A stretch of 64,000 nt of DNA, from the NCBI GenBank assembly GCA_964631145.1, contig CAZVXT010000001.1:52969-116968 (forward strand). Direction: 5' to 3'. The notes beneath the pieces are model-generated. The model searched no databases. It was not told the DNA's origin and saw only the letters and a list, made by a program, of their open reading frames with translations. Made by a program: the position numbers and the translations under genes. Shown here piece by piece: positions 17,948-46,607 of the stretch (position 1 is its first letter; each line of letters opens with the position of its first letter). The stretch comes from an uncultured Candidatus Saccharibacteria bacterium (lineage in GTDB: Bacteria > Patescibacteriota > Doudnabacteria > UBA920).

Positions 17948-19132
17948 TTAAATTAAATTTTCTATTGCAAATTTTTCGGCTTGATCGATAATCTTATGAT
18001 TAATATATTCAGGAGCAATGTTAATATGAACCAAATAATTATTATCGTAAGGATTTCGATTAAGCATATAGCGTTCTCCATTAATCTCTGATAATGGAAT
18101 TTTGACAGAGCGACCTATTCTATCTTGCCCAAGATAAACAGTAACCGCATCTACTGGTAGATTATTTTGCTTAGCAAAAATGCATGCCATAACAAACCTG
18201 TTGTCCCAAATTGAAATACCTTTTAATCTTTGACTAGGACTAGAGCTTTTATAAGTATAAACCCTGTGCAAAAACCTCCATTCTTTGAGGCGATTCAGAA
18301 AACCCAACGCCACACTGTCCTGACAATAAGCTTTTCTTGATAAATAATTTAGAGCCTCTTGATCAGTGAATGTAAAAAATAATTTACTCTTAGCAATGTC
18401 ATTCTGCAAGTAATATAAAACAGAAGATAACATGCTCGCAATTATTAAGTGAGGTTCTCCGTATGCGTTTTCATATACGCTTTTTCTTGCATCCATCCAA
18501 CCAACTATTTGTTGATGCAAAATTCCACGCTCCTGAATAGGAAATTCAAAAATCCACTCTTCACCATTCCATCTAAAATGTTTTGCAATGGTAACCGGGT
18601 TATACCAACTTTTCCATCTATTAATAGATATTGCATATCTATTAATATTATCCAAATTATCTATATCTAAAGAACCATGGATAATATCAGAAAAGGGTTT
18701 ATTTTTTCCACAGATCATAGCGACTAAGTCTTTAATATCTATGTTACAGTCTTCTATTAGTTTTCTATCGTCCTTGTGCTTACTTAACAAAACTTCTAAA
18801 TAGCTTTCACCGTTATGGTTAATAAATTTCTTCATTAAAGGCTCAGATAAATGGGCAAATGGAGGGTTACCATAATCATGATAAAGAGCTGATAAAAAAA
18901 TCAATGTTAATTGACTTGTTGTTAGATGCGGGTTATTTTTCACCACCTGCAGAGCTAGATATAACACACCCAAACCATGATGAAACCTTGAAGGTAACGA
19001 AAATGGTAAAAATTGGTTTGGAATAATCCCCAAAGTAATATTTCTAGCCCTTTTGGACAAAACACTGGACATAAAAGGTTCCAGCCATTTAGGCAACTCA
19101 TATTCTCCATAAATTGTGTCGTAAATTTGCAT
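17948..19132 (-). CDS. HD-domain phosphohydrolase related to dGTPase/SAMHD1-type dNTP triphosphohydrolases, with a divergent HD-region signature
   Basis: PSRFHHGLGV and ALYHDYGNPPFAHLSE correspond to dGTPase motifs (H..H and HD..H.PF.H); AGGAGGA SD. Confidence 0.6.
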   Translation of the reverse strand: MQIYDTIYGEYELPKWLEPFMSSVLSKRARNITLGIIPNQFLPFSLPSRFHHGLGVLYLALQVVKNNPHLTTSQLTLIFLSALYHDYGNPPFAHLSEPLMKKFINHNGESYLEVLLSKHKDDRKLIEDCNIDIKDLVAMICGKNKPFSDIIHGSLDIDNLDNINRYAISINRWKSWYNPVTIAKHFRWNGEEWIFEFPIQERGILHQQIVGWMDARKSVYENAYGEPHLIIASMLSSVLYYLQNDIAKSKLFFTFTDQEALNYLSRKAYCQDSVALGFLNRLKEWRFLHRVYTYKSSSPSQRLKGISIWDNRFVMACIFAKQNNLPVDAVTVYLGQDRIGRSVKIPLSEINGERYMLNRNPYDNNYLVHINIAPEYINHKIIDQAEKFAIENLI

Positions 19133-19295: not shown

Positions 19296-19372
19296 GCGCG
19301 TGTAGCTCAGTTGGTTAGAGCACAAAGCTTATACCTTTGCGGTCCCTGGTTCGAGTCCAGGCACGCGCACCA
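19296..19372 (+). tRNA. tRNA-Ile with UAU anticodon (reads AUA), preceded by the conserved 18-nt motif at 19230..19247
   Basis: Canonical cloverleaf; anticodon loop CTTATAC; T-arm GGTTCGAGTCC; CCA end. Confidence 0.75.
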
Positions 19373-28156: not shown

Positions 28157-29518
28157 ATGAATGAACAACAACTCTGGAAAGCAATTTTAGGAAACTTAGA
28201 AGTATCAATTAGTAGGGCAAACTACTTAACATGGTTTAAGAATACATCGATCATAGAACGGGGAGAAAACTATATCACAGTAAGCGTACCTAGTTTATTT
28301 ATCAAAAACTGGATTAATGATAAATACCATGGTTTTATTATTAAAGCCTTAAAGTCTATATCTCCTGATATTAAAGAGGTGAAATATCAAATAGGTGGAA
28401 CCAAGGTAGAAGAAAGTAATCAAGGAACACTTCTAAATAAGTCAGAGAAGACGGAAAAAAACACCGTTTTTTATCAAACTTCAGAAAGTGTTAATAGTAA
28501 TCACAATCTAAACAAACAATACACCTTTGAAACTTTCATCATTGGGCATAATAACGAGTTAGCCTATGCAGCTTCTACAGCAGTTTCAAAAAACCCTGGA
28601 AACCAATATAACCCTTTATTTATTTATGGTGGAGTAGGATTAGGGAAAACCCATTTAATGCAAGCGGTTGGTAATAAATTATTAGGAGAAAACCCTAGGG
28701 CAAGAGTCTTATACTCTTCTAGTGAAAAGTTTACTAACGACTTTATCAAATCTATTCAGCAAAAAAAAGTTGATGAATTCAAGAATGTATATAGAAGCGT
28801 TGATATGTTACTAATAGATGATATTCAATTTATTGCAGGTAAAGAACAGACTCAAGAAGAATTTTTCCATACGTTTAACGAATTAAGAGACAAAGGCAAG
28901 CAAATTATTATTACTTCCGACCGTCTGCCAAAAGATATTCCGGCAATTGAACAAAGGTTAATATCTAGGTTTGAATGGGGAATGGTTGTAGATATTAGTC
29001 CACCAAACCTTGAAACCAGAATAGCTATTATAAAAACTAAGTTAGCTAAAAAAGACATTAACTTATCAGAAGAAATTATTAACTATATTGCAGAAAATAT
29101 AGTTAGCAATGTCCGTGAACTAGAAGGTGCCTTAAACAAAATTACTGTGTTTAGCCAAGTTGGTAATAAGCAAATTTCGCTAGATCAAGTTAAAAGCGTA
29201 TTAGGTACAATAATTAATAGTAAAAAGAAGGTTGTTTCTATCAGAAAAATTGCCGAAACAGTAGCTAATTTTTATAGCGTTACAGTTGATGATCTTATAA
29301 AACAGTCTAGAAAAAAGGAATTTGTTAAACCAAGGCAAGTAGCAATGTACATAACTCGTAAAGAATTAGCTAGTTCTTTTCCTACAATAGGGGAATTTTT
29401 TGGGGGACGCGATCACACAACAGTTATGCATGGGGTAGAAAAACTAGAAAAAGCAGTAGCAATTGAAGATCCAATTAAGCAAGAACTGGAGCTAATTGTT
29501 GAAAAATTGTATGTATAA
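28157..29518 (+). CDS. dnaA: Chromosomal replication initiator DnaA
   Basis: AAA+ Walker A GGVGLGKTHL, box VII, C-terminal DNA-binding domain. Confidence 0.95.
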   Translation: MNEQQLWKAILGNLEVSISRANYLTWFKNTSIIERGENYITVSVPSLFIKNWINDKYHGFIIKALKSISPDIKEVKYQIGGTKVEESNQGTLLNKSEKTEKNTVFYQTSESVNSNHNLNKQYTFETFIIGHNNELAYAASTAVSKNPGNQYNPLFIYGGVGLGKTHLMQAVGNKLLGENPRARVLYSSSEKFTNDFIKSIQQKKVDEFKNVYRSVDMLLIDDIQFIAGKEQTQEEFFHTFNELRDKGKQIIITSDRLPKDIPAIEQRLISRFEWGMVVDISPPNLETRIAIIKTKLAKKDINLSEEIINYIAENIVSNVRELEGALNKITVFSQVGNKQISLDQVKSVLGTIINSKKKVVSIRKIAETVANFYSVTVDDLIKQSRKKEFVKPRQVAMYITRKELASSFPTIGEFFGGRDHTTVMHGVEKLEKAVAIEDPIKQELELIVEKLYV

Positions 29519-39501: not shown

Positions 39502-39930
39502 ATGTTTTATCAATATAATTTATTTGGTTGGTTTATTATTTTTTGTATAGTCGCATTTTTTATTGCATTTGCATTGGCTGTGTATATAAAAATGACTAAA
39601 AAATATACATTTGATTTTGAATTTCCAAAAAATCAGCATGATCTTAATGAGATGGTAGATTATTTGGCAAGTATGCCTGAGTGGTGTGTTTATAATTACT
39701 TTTTAAGTAAAAGTAATAAGCAAAGTGGTTTAGTAATACAAATTTCTCATATTGCTAAACTCTGGGAAAAAGAAAATATTTTTATTATTAACACACACCC
39801 AAATTATGAAGAAGTTTATAAGTATTTAGAAAACTCAAATTATCAAGTAGAGTTAACGTTTTTAAAAAATAACCTTACTATAAGTAGTAATAATCCTCTA
39901 GATTATTTGCAAGTTAAAATTTCAGATTAA
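39502..39930 (+). CDS. Hypothetical N-terminally anchored membrane protein (standalone unit: promoter, SD, terminator)
   Basis: 142 aa; TTGACC...TATACAAT promoter; AAAGGAGGAATAAGAAAATG; hairpin with T-run at 39931-39953. Confidence 0.5.
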   Translation: MFYQYNLFGWFIIFCIVAFFIAFALAVYIKMTKKYTFDFEFPKNQHDLNEMVDYLASMPEWCVYNYFLSKSNKQSGLVIQISHIAKLWEKENIFIINTHPNYEEVYKYLENSNYQVELTFLKNNLTISSNNPLDYLQVKISD

Positions 39931-39983: not shown

Positions 39984-42746
39984 ATGGCTACAAAAAATGA
40001 TAAAAAACGATATTTATTAATAGATGGAAACGCTCTCGTCCATAGGGGCTTTCATGCAGTTCCTTTACTCTCCACTAAAGATGGTTTGTATACTAATGCT
40101 GTTTATGGATTTACTACAATACTTCTTAAGGCAATTAAGGATTTAAAGCCAACACATATTGCTTGTTGTTTTGATTTGGCTGGTCCAACCTTTCGCCATG
40201 AAGAATATGAAGACTATAAAGGTACTAGAACAAAAGCTGCTGACGAATTATATCAACAGTTCCCTTTGGTTAAGGAAGTGGTGTCAGCTTTAAATATTCC
40301 AATTTTTGAATTATCTGGTTTTGAAGCAGACGATTTGCTTGGCACTTTATCTGTAAAAATTTGTGAAGCCAATGATCATAATTGCGATGTTATGATTGCA
40401 ACAGGAGATCTAGATAGCTTGCAGTTGGTTAATAAATGCGTAAAGATTTATACTTTACGAAAAAGTATTGCAGATACAACTATTTATGACGAAAAAGCCA
40501 TCAAAGAAAGATATGGATTATTGCCAAAGCAAATGATAGATTATAAAGCGCTTCGAGGTGATCCCTCTGATAATATTAAAGGCGTTAAAGGAATAGGAGA
40601 AAAAACTGCAGGAGAATTGATTCAAGAATTTGGTAGTATCGAAGCTTTATACAATGCAATAAAATCCCAGTCAAAAAAAGTTGAAGAAAAAATTAAGCCA
40701 CGCGTAGTAAAATTGTTAACTGATGGCGAAGATGACGCGCGACTAAGTTATCGATTATCAAAAATAGTTTTAGATGTGCCAATCGAAATAGATATCAAGT
40801 CTTATAAATTTGTAACTACAAATTTTGATAAAACTGTTGATCTTTTTAAAAAGCTGGAGTTCAAATCTCTTTTAGATAAATTGCCAAAAAACTATGTAGA
40901 CTCTGAAGATTCTAAAAACGATATAACTAAATCAGAAGATCAGATTATGAGTCAAAATATCGGGGAGCAAAATTATCAACTTATCGATACCTCAGAAAAA
41001 TTAAATAAAATTTTACCGAACTTAAAAAAGCAAAAATACTTAGTAGTAGACACAGAAACTGATCAGTTAAATCCGATGGTTGCTAATGTTATTGGAATTT
41101 CTATTTCATATCAAAAAGGATTGGCTTATTATATTATCCAAGAACTGTTAAGTAATAAAGATTTACAAAATATATTATCTGATAGCCAAATCAAAAAAAT
41201 CGGACAAAATATTAAGTATGATTATTTAACATTGGAAAATAGAGAAATTAAATTATCTCCAGTGTGGTTTGATACCATGCTTGCTTCCTATTTGCTTAAC
41301 GCTGGGACCAGGCAACATGGTTTAGATACAATGGCTTTTAATATACTGGGGTATCAAATGCAGTCTATCGAAGAATTGATAGGAAAAGGAAGAAATCAAA
41401 TTTCTATGTCAGAAGTTCCGGTAGAAAAAGTGTCATGGTACGCAAGTGAAGACGCAGATATTACTTTCCGCTTGTATGAGATTTTATCAGATCAGTTACA
41501 ATCAGAAAAATTAGATAAAGTTTTTTTTGATATAGAAATGCCTTTAATTTTGGTTCTTGCAAAAATGGAACGTGCTGGTATTGGCGTTGATGTTAAATTA
41601 TTAAACGATTTATCTGTAAAAGCTGAAAAACAAATTGCAAAATTAGAAAGCAGTATTTATAAGCATGCAGGGCAAGAGTTTAACATTTCTTCTCCAAAAC
41701 AATTGCAGGTTATTTTGTATGAAAATTTAAATTTAACTTCTGGTAAAAAGAATAAAACTGGATTATCAACTGCAGCAGGAGAATTAGAAAGATTGCGTGA
41801 CGAGCACCCTATTGTTTCTGATATTTTGGAATATCGTGAATTAACTAAATTAAAATCTACTTATTTAGATGCGCTTCCTTCTATGGTTAATAGTTCGACT
41901 GGAAGAATTCATACAAACTATAATCAGACAATTGCTGCTACAGGAAGATTGTCTAGTACGGATCCAAATTTGCAAAATATTCCAATTCGTGGACAAGGTT
42001 TGGGCAGTGAGGTAAGAAAAGCTTTTGTTGCTAAGTCAGGGTATAAATTAGTATCTTTGGATTATTCTCAAATAGAACTTCGTATCGCTGCTCATTTGTC
42101 TGGTGATAAGACTATGGCAGAAACTTTTAAAAAGAATGAAGATATTCATACCGCTACCGCATCTATGGTATTTGGAGTAAAGCCAGAACTGGTAACTGCT
42201 GATATGCGTCGCGATGCAAAGATGGTTAACTTTGGAGTATTATATGGGTTGTCTAGTTTTGGTTTGTCTGATCGGTTAGTAAGCATGTCGCAAGGATCAG
42301 CACAAGACTTTATCAATAAATATTTTGGTGCGTTTCCTGATGTGCAAACTTATTTAGAAAAAGTAAAATTAGAGGTTAGAGAAAATGCTGCAGTTACAAA
42401 TATGTTAGGAAGAATTAGAAAGTTTCCAGAAATAAAATCCAGTCAATATTTTATTCTTCAGGCAGCAGAGCGTGCAGCAATTAATTTTCCAATCCAAAGT
42501 TTAAGTGCTGATATTATAAAACTAGCAATGCTAGAAATCTATAAAGAATTAGATGGACAAGAAGAAATTCAGATGTTGTTGCAAGTGCACGACGAACTAG
42601 TTTTTGAAATTAAATCCGATAAGGTTGATAAATGGATAAAAAAAATAAAGCCTATTATGGAAAACTCCCTAAAGCTTTCTGTTCCAATAGTTGTAGAGGC
42701 AAAGGTTGGCGATAATTGGGGCGATATGGAAAAGGTTAGTTTTTAA
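39984..42746 (+). CDS. polA: DNA polymerase I (5'-3' exonuclease + 3'-5' exonuclease-like + polymerase domains)
   Basis: 920 aa; 5' nuclease N-terminus; motif A DYSQIELR; motif C QVHDELVFE. Confidence 0.95.
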   Translation: MATKNDKKRYLLIDGNALVHRGFHAVPLLSTKDGLYTNAVYGFTTILLKAIKDLKPTHIACCFDLAGPTFRHEEYEDYKGTRTKAADELYQQFPLVKEVVSALNIPIFELSGFEADDLLGTLSVKICEANDHNCDVMIATGDLDSLQLVNKCVKIYTLRKSIADTTIYDEKAIKERYGLLPKQMIDYKALRGDPSDNIKGVKGIGEKTAGELIQEFGSIEALYNAIKSQSKKVEEKIKPRVVKLLTDGEDDARLSYRLSKIVLDVPIEIDIKSYKFVTTNFDKTVDLFKKLEFKSLLDKLPKNYVDSEDSKNDITKSEDQIMSQNIGEQNYQLIDTSEKLNKILPNLKKQKYLVVDTETDQLNPMVANVIGISISYQKGLAYYIIQELLSNKDLQNILSDSQIKKIGQNIKYDYLTLENREIKLSPVWFDTMLASYLLNAGTRQHGLDTMAFNILGYQMQSIEELIGKGRNQISMSEVPVEKVSWYASEDADITFRLYEILSDQLQSEKLDKVFFDIEMPLILVLAKMERAGIGVDVKLLNDLSVKAEKQIAKLESSIYKHAGQEFNISSPKQLQVILYENLNLTSGKKNKTGLSTAAGELERLRDEHPIVSDILEYRELTKLKSTYLDALPSMVNSSTGRIHTNYNQTIAATGRLSSTDPNLQNIPIRGQGLGSEVRKAFVAKSGYKLVSLDYSQIELRIAAHLSGDKTMAETFKKNEDIHTATASMVFGVKPELVTADMRRDAKMVNFGVLYGLSSFGLSDRLVSMSQGSAQDFINKYFGAFPDVQTYLEKVKLEVRENAAVTNMLGRIRKFPEIKSSQYFILQAAERAAINFPIQSLSADIIKLAMLEIYKELDGQEEIQMLLQVHDELVFEIKSDKVDKWIKKIKPIMENSLKLSVPIVVEAKVGDNWGDMEKVSF

Positions 42747-42749
42747 ATT

Positions 42750-42782
42750 TTGTAAAACCGCTCTAATTTAGGAGTGGTTTTA
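42750..42782 (+). terminator. Rho-independent terminator after polA
   Basis: AAACCGCTCTAATTTAGGAGTGGTTTTATG forms a 9-bp stem with one G·U pair. Confidence 0.55.
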
Positions 42783-42904
42783 TGTAGATTTTATAATTAT
42801 TTTATGTGGTTGTGATATTATAAACGAGAAGAAATAATCAAAGCAAAAATTGAAACTCAAAGTAATGTGCAAAAATTACATAGAAAAAAATTAAAATTTA
42901 GGAT

Positions 42905-43894
42905 ATGGATACAGGAGAAATAATAATTTATAAAGATAATAGTGGTCCTCAAATTGAGGTAAATTTTGTTGATGATACTATATGGCTCACCCAGTCGCAG
43001 ATGGCTGATCTGTTTGGTAAAGACATTAGAACTATCTCTGAACATATCAAAAATATCTTTAAAACCGGGGAATTAGCAAAAGATTCAGTTATCCGGAATT
43101 TCCGGATAACTGCAAAAGATGGTAAAAACTATAATACGGCACATTACAATTTAGATATGATAATTTCTGTAGGATATAGAGTTAATTCTAAGCGCGGTAC
43201 TCAGTTTCGTATTTGGGCTACTTCAAAAATTCGAGATTTTTTACTAAAAGGTTATGTAGTAAATAAAAACGTTTTGCAATCTGGTGCTCTTGCAAAAGTT
43301 AAAGAGTTAGAGGGGGCGGTTAGGTTGATTCAATTAGCAATACAAAATAAAAAATTAGAAGGATATGAAAAGGAGGTTTTAGATATTATTACAGATTATG
43401 CTGCAACTTGGACTTTACTATATCAGTACGATGAACAAAAGCTACAACCAGAGCATGTGGTAAAGAAGGTAACTAGAAAATTAGATTATGAACAAGTTAC
43501 AAAATCTATTGATAAATTTCGAGACCGATTACTAAAAGATAAACAGGCTAGCAAGTTATTTGGAAAAGAACAAGATGGTAAGCTCCAGGCATTGTTAGGA
43601 AATATAGAGCAAACTTATGACGGCAAGTCTGTGTATGAAGGTTTTGAACAAAAGGCTGCTCATTTATTATACTTTGCAATTAAGGATCATCCTTTTGCAG
43701 ACGGTAATAAACGAATTGGTTCTTTATTATTTATTTTATACTTAGTAGAAAATGATCGCATTTATAACAAGCGAGGCGATAGAATAATTAATGACAATGC
43801 ATTAACAGCAATTGCATTATTAATTGCAGAAAGTAGTCCCAGTGAAAAAAGCACAATGGTTAATTTAGTGGCAAGTTTGATTGCAAAAAAATAA
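42905..43894 (+). CDS. RhuM-family N-terminal domain fused to a Doc/Fic (death-on-curing type) C-terminal domain
   Basis: C-terminal HPFADGNKRIGS matches the Doc variant of the Fic motif HxFx(D)GNKR; the N-terminal ~200 aa resemble virulence-protein RhuM-family proteins. Confidence 0.7.
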   Translation: MDTGEIIIYKDNSGPQIEVNFVDDTIWLTQSQMADLFGKDIRTISEHIKNIFKTGELAKDSVIRNFRITAKDGKNYNTAHYNLDMIISVGYRVNSKRGTQFRIWATSKIRDFLLKGYVVNKNVLQSGALAKVKELEGAVRLIQLAIQNKKLEGYEKEVLDIITDYAATWTLLYQYDEQKLQPEHVVKKVTRKLDYEQVTKSIDKFRDRLLKDKQASKLFGKEQDGKLQALLGNIEQTYDGKSVYEGFEQKAAHLLYFAIKDHPFADGNKRIGSLLFILYLVENDRIYNKRGDRIINDNALTAIALLIAESSPSEKSTMVNLVASLIAKK

Positions 43895-43990
43895 TTTTAA
43901 AAAAGCCTTGGTACAGCCGAGGTTTTTGTTTTATTGACTCAATGCTATTTTTAGCGTAATATTTATTTTTTATATAAGTTAGGAGGAAAT

Positions 43991-44527
43991 ATGCTAGAGC
44001 AAATTCAAGACAATAAAGATCTGCTTTTGGTTGATTACAACATCAAGCCATTTGTCCCAGAAGGATGGTATTTTTATAAACCTGTCACCAAACTCGGTGT
44101 TTATGTTTATAGAATGCAAGATTTTATCATTATTCCGGCAATGAATTTTAAAATCAATAATGAAGATAAAATTAATTACCGGAAATTTCGTGAACGGTTT
44201 GAAGAGTCGCAATTAATATCGCCTGATGTGAGAGTTATGGAAGAAATGATTAAGCAAAAATCTAATTTATTGCCTCTGTCTTGGTTTAAATTAGATATGC
44301 ACTATCATTTTTTAGAAACTTTATATGGCGTTCCTCATGGTGAAAGAATGCGAAGGTATATGTGTTGGGGGTATGCTAGGTGGGCTGTAGAATATCGTTA
44401 TCATCCAAGACAAATTCTAAAATGGCGTTCCGATTATTCGTTTGGCGAAAGCCCCTTCGGTGAAAATGACTTTATTGTAATTTTAAAACAAGATGCTGTT
44501 ATTGAATATATAGATAAGTTAGATTAA
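43991..44527 (+). CDS. Hypothetical protein downstream of the RhuM–Doc gene (own promoter, perfect SD)
   Basis: 178 aa; TTAGGAGGAAATATG; Trp/Tyr/Arg-rich C-terminal half; no recognisable domain. Confidence 0.5.
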   Translation: MLEQIQDNKDLLLVDYNIKPFVPEGWYFYKPVTKLGVYVYRMQDFIIIPAMNFKINNEDKINYRKFRERFEESQLISPDVRVMEEMIKQKSNLLPLSWFKLDMHYHFLETLYGVPHGERMRRYMCWGYARWAVEYRYHPRQILKWRSDYSFGESPFGENDFIVILKQDAVIEYIDKLD

Positions 44528-44564
44528 ACTAAATATCATAGATATTTTAAATTAAATATTTTTA

Positions 44565-44592
44565 ACAAAAACACCCAATTAAGGGTGTTTAA
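44565..44592. terminator. Bidirectional terminator shared with rpsT
   Basis: AAAAACACCCAATTAAGGGTGTTTAATTTTG. Confidence 0.65.
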
Positions 44593-44599
44593 TTTTGTT

Positions 44600-44869
44600 C
44601 TATTTAGCAGAAAGTTTGTTTAAAGCTTTTGCAAGTCTAGATTTTTTGCGAGAAGCAGTATTTTTGTGAATTACATTCTTCTTTGCAGCTTTATCTAAAG
44701 CAGACATTGCTTTCTTTAAATCTTCCGCAGCAGTTTTGCTGTCTCCAGTTGTTATGCTTTTGCGTGCTACTTTTACCGCATCTTTAGTTTTGAACTTGGT
44801 GCGAGTATTAATAGTGTTGCGGCGTCTAGATTGACGCATTGCCTTTTGGGCAGACTTGGTATTTGGCAT
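44600..44869 (-). CDS. rpsT: 30S ribosomal protein S20
   Basis: MPNTKSAQKAMRQSRRRNTINTRTKF... is the canonical S20 N-terminus. Confidence 0.9.
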   Translation of the reverse strand: MPNTKSAQKAMRQSRRRNTINTRTKFKTKDAVKVARKSITTGDSKTAAEDLKKAMSALDKAAKKNVIHKNTASRKKSRLAKALNKLSAK

Positions 44870-45071: not shown

Positions 45072-45827
45072 ATGAATAGTAATAAAAGCGAAGCTTTGCA
45101 AGTTGATAATGTTCAGAATAACCTAAAAGCAAAAATTGCAATTCAGGCGTGCGAACAATTGGGTTTTACTGGGTATCTTAGGTATTTTCAAGAAAATAAA
45201 CAAGCTTTGACAAAAGATTTAAACGAAGTAAGTTTAAGTTCGGTTTTAGGTAACGTAGGAATAAATTTTTATCCTGAACAAGCCTTTAATAGAATTATTG
45301 ATGAATATTTTTGGGCTAATTTTAGTAAAGGTAAATTTAATTTATGGTTGCATAACTTAGAAATTAATCACTGGGTAAAATTGTATTTTTCTATATTTTT
45401 ATTATTTTACTCTATATCGTATTATACTCTTCATTCTTATGTATGGGGTAATAATACACCCGCTTGTATTTTGATGTCGTTAATTATTTCATTTTTTGCT
45501 TTTGCCGCAATTAAGGATTTGGTTTTAAATCCAAGAGAAGAAAAAGTAGAAAAGCTAAAAATTAAAAAATCAGATTTAAGTAAAACTAGCCTAGATGTAA
45601 ACCCAGAATTTATTACCATGGCGTTGCAAATTAAATCGTTTGACTCAACTGCGAAATTTAATATTTGCTATTATTATAAAGATTGGGGTATTGATTCAAA
45701 TAAACCTCAATGGCTAGAAGTAACTAATGCTTCTGGAGAAAAGTGTTATATTCCTGAACACGAAGGTGATTGGCAAAATTATTGTGACCTACCTTCATCT
45801 AGTGAACAAGTATTAAATTATTTATAG
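45072..45827 (+). CDS. Novel membrane protein, paralog A of a tandem pair
   Basis: 251 aa; N-terminal soluble domain with ACEQLGFTGYLRYFQENKQ; central TM helices; C-terminal domain MALQIKSFDSTAKFNICYYY; own promoter TTGACT-17-TAAAAT, AGGAGGAA SD and terminator. Confidence 0.55.
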   Translation: MNSNKSEALQVDNVQNNLKAKIAIQACEQLGFTGYLRYFQENKQALTKDLNEVSLSSVLGNVGINFYPEQAFNRIIDEYFWANFSKGKFNLWLHNLEINHWVKLYFSIFLLFYSISYYTLHSYVWGNNTPACILMSLIISFFAFAAIKDLVLNPREEKVEKLKIKKSDLSKTSLDVNPEFITMALQIKSFDSTAKFNICYYYKDWGIDSNKPQWLEVTNASGEKCYIPEHEGDWQNYCDLPSSSEQVLNYL

Positions 45828-45917
45828 TCGACAAGTTCGACTATTTTTTTATTTTCATAGTCTTTACATGACTATTTATAAATGTTAATATTTATAGAAT
45901 TTAAAAAGGAGGAATAT

Positions 45918-46607
45918 ATGAAAACAGATTTAGATTTATTAGATTATAAAAAAACTTTAGCAAAAGAAGCTGCTAATAAGCTTGGATTTAGAGGGTATTT
46001 GCCTCAAGGTAACCAACAAGTTGTTAAGCAAAATTACCCTGAAATTCCATTAATGCCATTACTAACTCAATATGGATTTCCGGTTTATGACCAATGTTTT
46101 TTTAATAATAGAGCCAACCAAATTTTTGAAGAAAATTTAGAACAGGCGGGGTTATTAAAAAAGTATAATTTTAGAAATAAGGTCCAAATAACTTTTAACA
46201 AATGGTTTGTCTTATATCCTTTTTTAATAATAGTTTGTGGACTAGAGTTGTTTTTTGCTTATTTAGTTATAACAACTAACTACGAATCATTGGGAGCGGT
46301 ATGTATGTTATCAGGTATAGTGTTTTTGTTTGTATTGATGATAGTGTTAATGAGATTTGCATTGTTTTTATCCGGAAAAAACTTTCAACACCGTTTTCAT
46401 TCGATGGATCTTAAAAGTTTGAAAAACGACTGGGTTCATCCTATTGTGATTGAAATGGCATTGAAGATTTTTGACCAAGACAATTCTGCTAAATTTGAAG
46501 TTGGATATTTTCTTGACGAAGCACAAAAGCCTGCGAGTCAAAATCAATTTTTGGTAGTTCAGAATTATTATTCCGGTGATCAGAAATATTATATGAAGAT
46601 CACTTAA
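45918..46607 (+). CDS. Novel membrane protein, paralog B of the tandem pair
   Basis: Homologous motifs AANKLGFRGYLPQGNQQ and MALKIFDQDNSAKFEVGYFL; start set at the ATG at 45918 after AAGGAGGAATAT; own terminator at 46609-46641. Confidence 0.55.
   Translation: MKTDLDLLDYKKTLAKEAANKLGFRGYLPQGNQQVVKQNYPEIPLMPLLTQYGFPVYDQCFFNNRANQIFEENLEQAGLLKKYNFRNKVQITFNKWFVLYPFLIIVCGLELFFAYLVITTNYESLGAVCMLSGIVFLFVLMIVLMRFALFLSGKNFQHRFHSMDLKSLKNDWVHPIVIEMALKIFDQDNSAKFEVGYFLDEAQKPASQNQFLVVQNYYSGDQKYYMKIT

Follow-up and report, generated by a model that had tools for sequence, protein, structure and literature searches.

Doc targets EF-Tu, and the phosphorylation stops translation. EzeT and CapRel(SJ46) are toxin-antitoxin proteins fused into a single chain, and the sites bound by PurR in purB and known as lac O2 in lacZ are intragenic roadblock operators. 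Here we compare with these systems a locus between polA and rpsT in a 64-kb stretch of Patescibacteria DNA (contig CAZVXT010000001.1; hereafter the window). The locus holds a gene for a 329-residue protein with an N-terminal RhuM part and a C-terminal Doc-like domain, a perfect palindrome within the codons of that gene and, downstream, a gene for a 178-residue protein.

The RhuM-Fic architecture was already described in 2013, in a passage of Anantharaman et al. (PMC3710099). It also has a product name in RefSeq, a candidate model in PADLOC and one studied member, BifA; the fusion is therefore not novel. BifA, from Streptococcus equi subsp. zooepidemicus, is a RhuM-Fic protein whose catalytic-His-dependent activity promotes threonine phosphorylation of moesin (PMC6529018). 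Compared by its published description, BifA shares with the window protein the N-terminal RhuM part and the C-terminal Fic domain. It differs in being a reported secreted virulence factor that acts on host moesin (PMC6529018), whereas the window organism is probably a free-living or epibiotic Patescibacterium.

Our overall reading, which we hold at a probability of about 60%, is that the locus consists of a known RhuM-Doc fusion that is vertically inherited and carries a class-linked palindrome, with an unrelated orphan gene beside it; Doc-type chemistry and control in cis would complete the picture. It is the coding palindrome in RhuM genes that deserves follow-up.

The 329-residue protein is a RhuM/Fic/DOC fusion

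The gene and the features within it are as follows.

42905 to 43894, + strand: RhuM/Fic/DOC fusion gene, 329 aa (Pfam RhuM and Fic; PADLOC PDC-S23 end to end)
43019 to 43045, + strand: codons 39-47, turn of the helix-turn-helix (HTH) and start of the recognition helix (K39, D40, R42, T43, E46 and the invariant H47)
43086 to 43112, no strand assigned: perfect 13+1+13 palindrome, CAGTTATCCGGAA-T-TTCCGGATAACTG, codons S61 to A70, first strand of the predicted wing
43487 to 43888, + strand: Doc-like (Fic-fold) domain, residues about 195-328
43688 to 43714, + strand: Doc-type catalytic motif HPFADGNKR, H262 to R270

The initial annotation, made from the sequence alone, had read the protein as a RhuM-like part fused to a Doc-type Fic domain, and family comparisons bear this out. 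Pfam Virulence_RhuM (PF13310) matched residues 61-195 (E 1.6e-24; 87 bits, cutoff 33.7), spanning only positions 1-128 of the 252 in the model, and Fic/DOC (PF02661) matched residues 209-280 (E 1.8e-10; 42 bits, cutoff 24). The PADLOC model PDC-S23 (PDLC04965), a candidate single-gene defence system, aligned from end to end, pairing residues 1-328 of the protein with positions 1-325 of the 327-position model (E 4e-118); a literature search for PDC-S23 returned nothing relevant. The PHROG family 'Doc-like toxin' matched at 6e-13. At least 8000 homologues were found at E <= 1e-10. Both Pfam domains occur in all 120 homologues listed, some of which, like plasmid copies in RefSeq, bear the name 'virulence protein RhuM/Fic/DOC family protein'. 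An AlphaFold2 model (mean pLDDT 75; 78-93 in the C-terminal domain) has the six-helix Fic core of the Doc fold, a helix at residues 41-54 and long low-confidence helices over residues 96-176, with a linker pLDDT of 51-66. We conclude that the gene is a standard member of the RhuM/Fic/DOC family, encoding, in order from the N-terminus, a winged helix-turn-helix (wHTH), a long helical linker and a Doc-like domain. It has in common with the family the order of the two Pfam domains, the length, the motif HxFxDGNKR and the coding palindrome described below.

Residues 262-273 read HPFADGNKRIGS, of which the first nine (262-270) are HPFADGNKR, conforming to the motif HxFx(D/N)(A/G)NKR, in which the Lys at position 8 makes Doc a kinase (PMC4177925). 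The motif of AMPylating Fic proteins, HxFx(D/E)GNGRxxR, is departed from at position 8, which is Lys for Gly, and at the last Arg, which is Ser in HPFADGNKRIGS. Nor does the protein contain a match to (S/T)xxxE(G/N), the inhibitory helix motif of AMPylating Fic proteins, which there lies in cis or in a partner. A search of PDB sequences with the single sequence gave no match at E 0.01. The top match of the family profile in PDB was a solved Doc-family protein, 9vzc_A, whose HCFYNANKR aligned with HPFADGNKR; the assignment of the Doc motif residues, for which the initial annotation had named such a profile comparison as the check, thus stands. D-G-N-K-R and F264 are invariant in 45 close homologues, with His at position 262 in 44 of them, and all 82 genes recovered from genome loci carry H-x-[FL]-x-DGNKR. 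By analogy with Doc, we infer that the protein would use ATP to phosphorylate a target protein. One close homologue, P0078, has KPFSDGNKR, in which Lys replaces the catalytic His; as judged from this motif, its Doc domain may be inactive.

The polA stop codon (42746) lies 158 nt upstream of the RhuM-Fic start, and the interval contains the polA terminator and no open reading frame (ORF). A Phd/YefM-type antitoxin gene is not found directly upstream, and a Phd-like gene could not fit there, as had been noted initially. Unlike phage P1 Doc, then, the window gene has no phd and belongs to no operon, and its Doc domain makes up the C-terminal third of a 329-residue chain. Because no antitoxin gene exists, we infer that the protein has to be controlled in cis, in the way of toxin-antitoxin proteins made as a single chain. 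The likeness to EzeT and CapRel(SJ46) lies in a toxin domain that lacks a separate antitoxin gene and is presumably controlled by the other domain of the same chain; the folds, in contrast, are unrelated, and neutralisation of the Doc domain by RhuM is putative here. In such a scheme the N-terminal part and the linker would restrain the Doc domain until a trigger arrives.

A palindrome at RhuM codons 61-70 is maintained by paired changes

A terminator scan flagged a 12-pair stem within the RhuM-Fic gene, which is a perfect 27-nt palindrome, CAGTTATCCGGAA-T-TTCCGGATAACTG. The initial annotation had mentioned neither this palindrome nor the terminator at 43901-43927. The palindrome occurs once in the window and never in shuffled sequence. 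Its two Arg codons are both CGG, a codon that accounts for 7 of the 434 Arg codons (1.6%) in the large ORFs of the window. In relatives, the same codons form palindromes of other sequence and encode other peptides, such as CAGTTGTTGCA-AAAAA-TGCAACAACTG (SVVAKNATTA) and CAGTATGTTCCA-TTT-TGGAACATACTG (SVCSILEHTA).

The codons of 83 distinct genes, drawn from many phyla, were aligned on the basis of their proteins (987 nt), and every possible centre was scanned for pairing at distances of 3-12. There was a single peak, at gene nt 195, with 87.2% Watson-Crick pairing, against a mean of 26.6% over the gene (standard deviation 6.9) and 49.6% at the next-best centre. With 92 sequences in gapless register, 87.1% of cells were paired as compared with 55.8% in shuffles (0 of 500 as high), the covariation score was 0.784 versus 0.234, and sliding the partner columns by 1-3 positions left 20-41% pairing. 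Double-sided changes were present in all 11 stem pairs. The encoded residues 64 and 67 change as pairs along with the palindrome (R..R, A..A, S..E, Q..H, K..L), and the identical 27-mer occurs in two genes with only 51-57% nucleotide identity to the window gene.

RhuM genes lacking the Fic domain have the palindrome as well: stems of at least 9 bp were present in 40 of 51 distinct genes from viral contigs, and the rhuM of Escherichia coli ATCC 11775, beside tRNA-Sec (selC), carries it with one mismatch. Across RhuM genes it measures 25-31 bp, at codons 61-70, and GC-rich hosts keep it by means of AT-rich codons. We conclude that the palindrome at RhuM codons 61-70 is maintained by paired changes across phyla. 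A literature search on the rhuM palindrome found no published description.

The RhuM family gene of E. coli ATCC 11775 (L171, 4646-5830) begins 52 nt after tRNA-Sec, which we take to be the same tRNA gene as at the rhuM site of Salmonella SPI-3. RhuM genes are present in 843 of 5426 complete E. coli genomes, and the type strain, having one, is a convenient organism for experiments on the palindrome.

Within the ORFs of the window, the only other perfect palindromes with arms of at least 10 bp are at 18619-18647 and 29080-29105. The remaining 16 perfect palindromes are intergenic, lie at gene ends and look like terminators.

Palindrome class matches the recognition helix

Palindromes were grouped by core sequence, and the core class was compared with residue 46, just before the invariant His47. 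CCGG went with Glu in 14 of 14 genes and TTCCA/TGGAA with Lys in 20 of 20; TGCA went with Arg or Lys (39/39) and TAAG with Met or Gln (5/5). An independent set of viral and E. coli genes gave the same result for CCGG-Glu (8/8) and for TGCA with Arg or Lys (7/7). The adjusted mutual information with core class was 0.45-0.78 at residues 39, 40, 42, 43 and 46, at most 0.13 at residues 47-60 and at most 0.20 at residues 68-97, and averaged 0.02 over residues 100-329. No link was seen between core class and the class of wing length, which is encoded immediately 3' of the palindrome. Core class thus goes with the residues at which the predicted recognition helix begins.

Genes whose C-terminal 230 residues are 80-85% identical are often of different class, the nearest neighbour had the same class for only 41 of 83 genes, and N-terminal modules have been shuffled with respect to this C-terminal portion. 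The classes CCGG, TGCA, TTCCA and TAAG all occur even among the syntenic Patescibacteria relatives of the window gene. About 10-11 bp separate the core half-sites, with a centre of A/T only between them; half-sites one helical turn apart are the usual geometry for an HTH dimer.

Possible roles of the palindrome

Our best guess is that the palindrome serves as an intragenic operator controlling a single-chain toxin. A wHTH dimer may bind the palindrome in its own gene, which we put forward tentatively; it would then form a transcriptional roadblock and so limit expression. On an equally cautious footing, RhuM DNA-binding domains might carry their own cognate operator in their codons, so that reader and site would co-diversify, with at least four classes shuffled between near-identical genes. 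The base-reading residues would be 39-46, possibly together with 64 and 67, which the palindrome itself encodes. The arrangement resembles PurR/purB and lac O2 in that a dyad-symmetric site, putative here, lies in codons and has to be accommodated by the coding sequence. In those systems, however, the repressor is encoded elsewhere and the site is not diversifying, whereas here the putative site falls within the codons of the DNA-binding domain and exists in at least four classes. A binding site at this position would explain the control of solitary toxin-like proteins and offer a simple natural system for studying the co-evolution of a protein and its DNA site. If the operator is the gene's own, it would be a self-contained control element that dispenses with an antitoxin, and a rare case of site and reader residing in the same nucleotides.

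Several observations weigh against such an operator or against the single-chain toxin that it would control. The palindrome has decayed in about 15% of family members, for example at L089. The window contains no second copy, and neither the promoter nor the surrounding 6 kb yields more matches than chance would give (the 810 kb of flanking sequence has 14 loose matches to an arm, where we estimate that roughly 13 would turn up by chance); a classical upstream operator is therefore absent. The pattern linking residue 46 to residues 64 and 67 (Glu-Arg, Lys-Glu, Met-Leu) could be an intramolecular contact instead. Paired changes could arise free of selection, since template-switch correction of quasi-palindromes is documented to homogenise the arms of short inverted repeats (PMC7202029, PMC8604942). 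The gene has long been retained vertically beside polA and diverges at a housekeeping-like rate, which is unusual for toxins and defence genes and might point to regulation without toxicity. Inhibition of the Doc domain by the N-terminal part and linker is conjectural, because confidence in the linker model is low (pLDDT 51-66). Unlike P1 Doc, the protein falls under the cutoff of TIGR01550 (DOC_P1; 32.9 bits, cutoff 38.65), and its chemistry and target, like its kinase activity, toxicity and DNA binding, are predictions from sequence.

Template switching would allow a palindrome with no function: once a near-perfect inverted repeat is in place, switching during replication copies changes from arm to arm and so perpetuates it, the protein tolerates the resulting residue pairs, and the link to residue 46 reflects an internal salt bridge (Glu-Arg or Lys-Glu). 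The charge pattern of residue 46 against 64/67 fits such a bridge, and copying at the DNA level predicts what is seen in the arms, which are nearly always perfect Watson-Crick with G.T and A.C mismatches about equally rare. The lack of a second site elsewhere and the two further intragenic perfect palindromes of the window point the same way. A by-product would not, however, be expected to keep to one set of RhuM codons across many phyla and in both architectures, to persist in GC-rich hosts by AT-rich codons and here by the rare CGG, or to keep its centre always A/T with core half-sites one helical turn apart; moreover, core class co-varies with five positions, not one, in the HTH turn and at the start of the helix. 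Inverted repeats rarely overlap coding sequence owing to the cost to the protein (PMC6649704), which speaks against a functionless repeat. Because coding inverted repeats are rare and constrain the protein in this way, long retention at one codon position needs explaining under either model (PMC6649704). We regard the functionless palindrome as possible, though doubtful; if it is correct, RhuM genes would show clearly, in nature, how the arms of an inverted repeat in coding sequence evolve in concert.

The palindrome might also act as RNA. It could form a hairpin in the mRNA or serve an antisense RNA as terminator or target; either way, like a type I antitoxin, it would curb a toxic product through its translation or its stability. 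The calculated folding energy is -20.0 kcal/mol for the + strand (z -5.2) and -18.9 kcal/mol for the - strand (z -5.7), a consensus scan called a terminator-like site on the - strand, and there is no protein antitoxin. Yet the T-run after the - strand stem is found in AT-rich members only, being absent from the GC-rich L031 and L033; G-U pairs, at only about 2% of cells, favour neither strand; comparison of the window and of eight other loci with Rfam gave no match; and the tracking of HTH residues by core class is left unexplained. This makes an RNA element improbable. As G.T and A.C mismatches are about equally rare, the strand of the palindrome is not assignable from them.

Other identities were considered for the palindrome. 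That of an intrinsic terminator was rejected since the T-run is not conserved, and a LexA box was dropped on account of the wrong spacing, PMC3998124 being concerned with a promoter site. A restriction site, a frameshift signal and an inversion site were likewise considered and dropped.

The downstream gene is an orphan and not a partner

Downstream of the RhuM-Fic stop codon the locus contains the following features.

43901 to 43927, + strand: strong intrinsic terminator directly 3' of the RhuM-Fic stop, 12-pair stem AAAAGCCTTGG-TAC-AGCCGAGGTTTTT, then GTTTTATT
43934 to 43962, + strand: promoter-like site of the 178-aa gene, TTGACT-17-TAATAT, 9/12 matches (consensus match only)
43981 to 43986, + strand: Shine-Dalgarno sequence AGGAGG, 4 nt upstream of the 178-aa gene
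43991 to 44527, + strand: orphan 178-aa gene, a lineage-specific insertion with no family match
44569 to 44590, no strand assigned: terminator between the 178-aa gene and the convergent rpsT, 8-pair stem AAACACCC-AATTAA-GGGTGTTT

The layout given in the initial annotation was recovered from the sequence in full: the ORFs, the gaps of 158 nt before the RhuM-Fic gene and 96 nt after it, the promoter-like site, AGGAGG and the terminator before rpsT. On this layout it had proposed that the 178-aa gene could encode an immunity or antitoxin partner or a target-related factor, or could be unrelated, and that the arrangement was worth testing as a toxin or defence module. The genes are indeed on the same strand and adjacent with a 96-nt gap, no Phd-like gene is present upstream, and the 178-aa product lacks a known family. 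Between them, however, stands the terminator at 43901-43927, which, as a prediction, argues against co-transcription; with the separate promoter-like site and separate Shine-Dalgarno sequence, likewise predictions, the two do not have the features of one transcription unit.

The 178-aa protein had no match in Pfam, NCBIfam, PADLOC or PHROG. When 5.8 billion proteins were searched by word index, the query alone came back. HMMER, run exhaustively over 1.84 billion representative proteins, detected one distant relative, P0122 (230 aa, 36% identity, E 2e-10), and a profile built from the two sequences recovered no further relatives. Because the pair share clear conserved blocks, such as LLV(D/N)YNIKP and SPD.RV.EEM..QK, the 178-aa ORF is a real gene. 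AlphaFold2 run on it without an alignment gave an unusable model (pLDDT 32.6).

Relatives of each gene occur without the other. P0122, the sole relative among the 1.8 billion representatives, adjoins infA on a 1982-bp contig, where the space upstream is too small for a Fic gene. Conversely, tblastn with the 178-aa protein and P0122 found no match at any of the 88 other RhuM-Fic loci, the eight syntenic relatives included, and no paralogue of the 178-aa protein in the window. The proposed conservation of the gene pair across genomes therefore fails in both directions. In relatives, the slot before rpsT is empty or holds a NUDIX, a DinB-like or a weakly DUF202-like gene. We conclude that the 178-aa gene is an unrelated orphan in a variable slot and not an antitoxin, immunity or target partner; a two-gene module is scarcely credible and can be dropped. 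As originally flagged, the locus is routine, a known fusion family followed by an unrelated orphan.

RhuM-Fic is vertically inherited between polA and rpsT

The RhuM-Fic gene and the orphan are flanked by housekeeping genes.

39984 to 42746, + strand: polA (DNA polymerase I), 920-aa ORF (Pfam 5_3_exonuc and DNA_pol_A)
42751 to 42784, + strand: intrinsic terminator after polA, 14-pair stem, then a T-run
44600 to 44869, - strand: rpsT (ribosomal protein S20; Pfam Ribosomal_S20p)

The close relatives of the window gene come from Patescibacteria assemblies, and the longest contig on which the window proteins are found measures 653,896 bp. The order polA, RhuM-Fic, rpsT(-) recurs at L002, L003, L005, L087, L088, L089, L008 and L014, and uvrB(-) is next in all six of these eight syntenic relatives whose sequence extends far enough. 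The RhuM-Fic and PolA proteins have diverged together, with identities to the window proteins (RhuM-Fic/PolA, %) of 69/63, 68/64, 64/63, 65/67, 64/60, 60/61 and 55/57; over the syntenic relatives PolA is 57-67% and the rpsT product 54-78% identical. In the nearest relatives (L002, L003, L005 and L087) rpsT follows RhuM-Fic after 36-116 nt. Elsewhere the slot holds a NUDIX gene (L014), a DinB-family gene with an 81-aa ORF (L089) or a 108-aa ORF that is weakly DUF202-like (L088). Since the slot is empty or differently occupied in relatives, it is a variable insertion point, and the gene that fills it in the window is another unrelated one. GC content stays level across the locus, at 0.29-0.34, as it does in neighbouring genes, and no mobile-element genes were found near the locus. 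We conclude that in this small-genome Patescibacteria lineage RhuM-Fic is a solitary, separately transcribed gene, vertically inherited between polA and rpsT.

Outside this lineage the family is patchy across phyla, on plasmids and in viral contigs. No conserved small neighbour gene emerged across 82 loci, and the only recurrent neighbours outside Patescibacteria were type I restriction-modification genes: an hsdR-like large gene at 8 of the 82 loci, directly downstream at 6, and an hsdS-like gene at 7 (calls made from the sequences, not by a family scan). Many members outside Patescibacteria sit in type I restriction-modification operons or on plasmids, unlike the window gene, a stable neighbour of polA and rpsT. 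Long vertical retention beside polA is unusual for a patchy, plasmid- and virus-borne family. A family usually regarded as mobile toxin, virulence or defence genes is here stable beside polA and rpsT in a reduced genome, which raises the question of what an antitoxin-less Doc-type enzyme does there.

One answer would be that the protein of this lineage, rather than a toxin or defence protein, is a regulator that has been domesticated and that responds to a DNA signal by phosphorylating a factor in translation or replication. Its position beside polA, kept in eight relatives and echoed at L024, where the gene lies 10 nt upstream of a split polA, would suit such a role, as would divergence equal to that of PolA, native base composition and surroundings in which no mobile-element genes were found. 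We nevertheless consider it unlikely: the family is patchy, found on plasmids and viral contigs and inside type I restriction-modification operons (PMC3710099), and the N-terminal class differs even among syntenic relatives, which is more typical of conflict genes.

Two relatives have unusual arrangements of polA. At L014 (3436-6660), from a metagenome-assembled genome labelled Saccharibacteria, a single 1074-aa ORF joins PolA residues 1-802 in frame to RhuM-Fic residues 111-328 and is followed by the NUDIX gene and rpsT; it is either a true gene-fusing deletion or an assembly error. At L024 (5977-9453), from a more distant Patescibacterium (48% identity), the split polA consists of a 388-aa exonuclease gene and a 419-aa polymerase gene, giving a second, different adjacency of RhuM-Fic and polA.

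Other features of the window

A 142-aa ORF (39502-39930) between a pilus ATPase gene and polA is without a family and has no counterpart in the loci of relatives. The interval between rpsT and uvrB contains two tandem paralogous ORFs, 45072-45827 and 45882-46607 (251 and 241 aa), which are 26% identical to each other (E 6e-11) and have hydrophobic central segments. They matched no Pfam family significantly, and the related loci yielded no relative of either ORF; the interval is another variable slot. Finally, a tRNA-Ile with the anticodon UAU, which is uncommon in bacteria, is encoded at 19296-19372.

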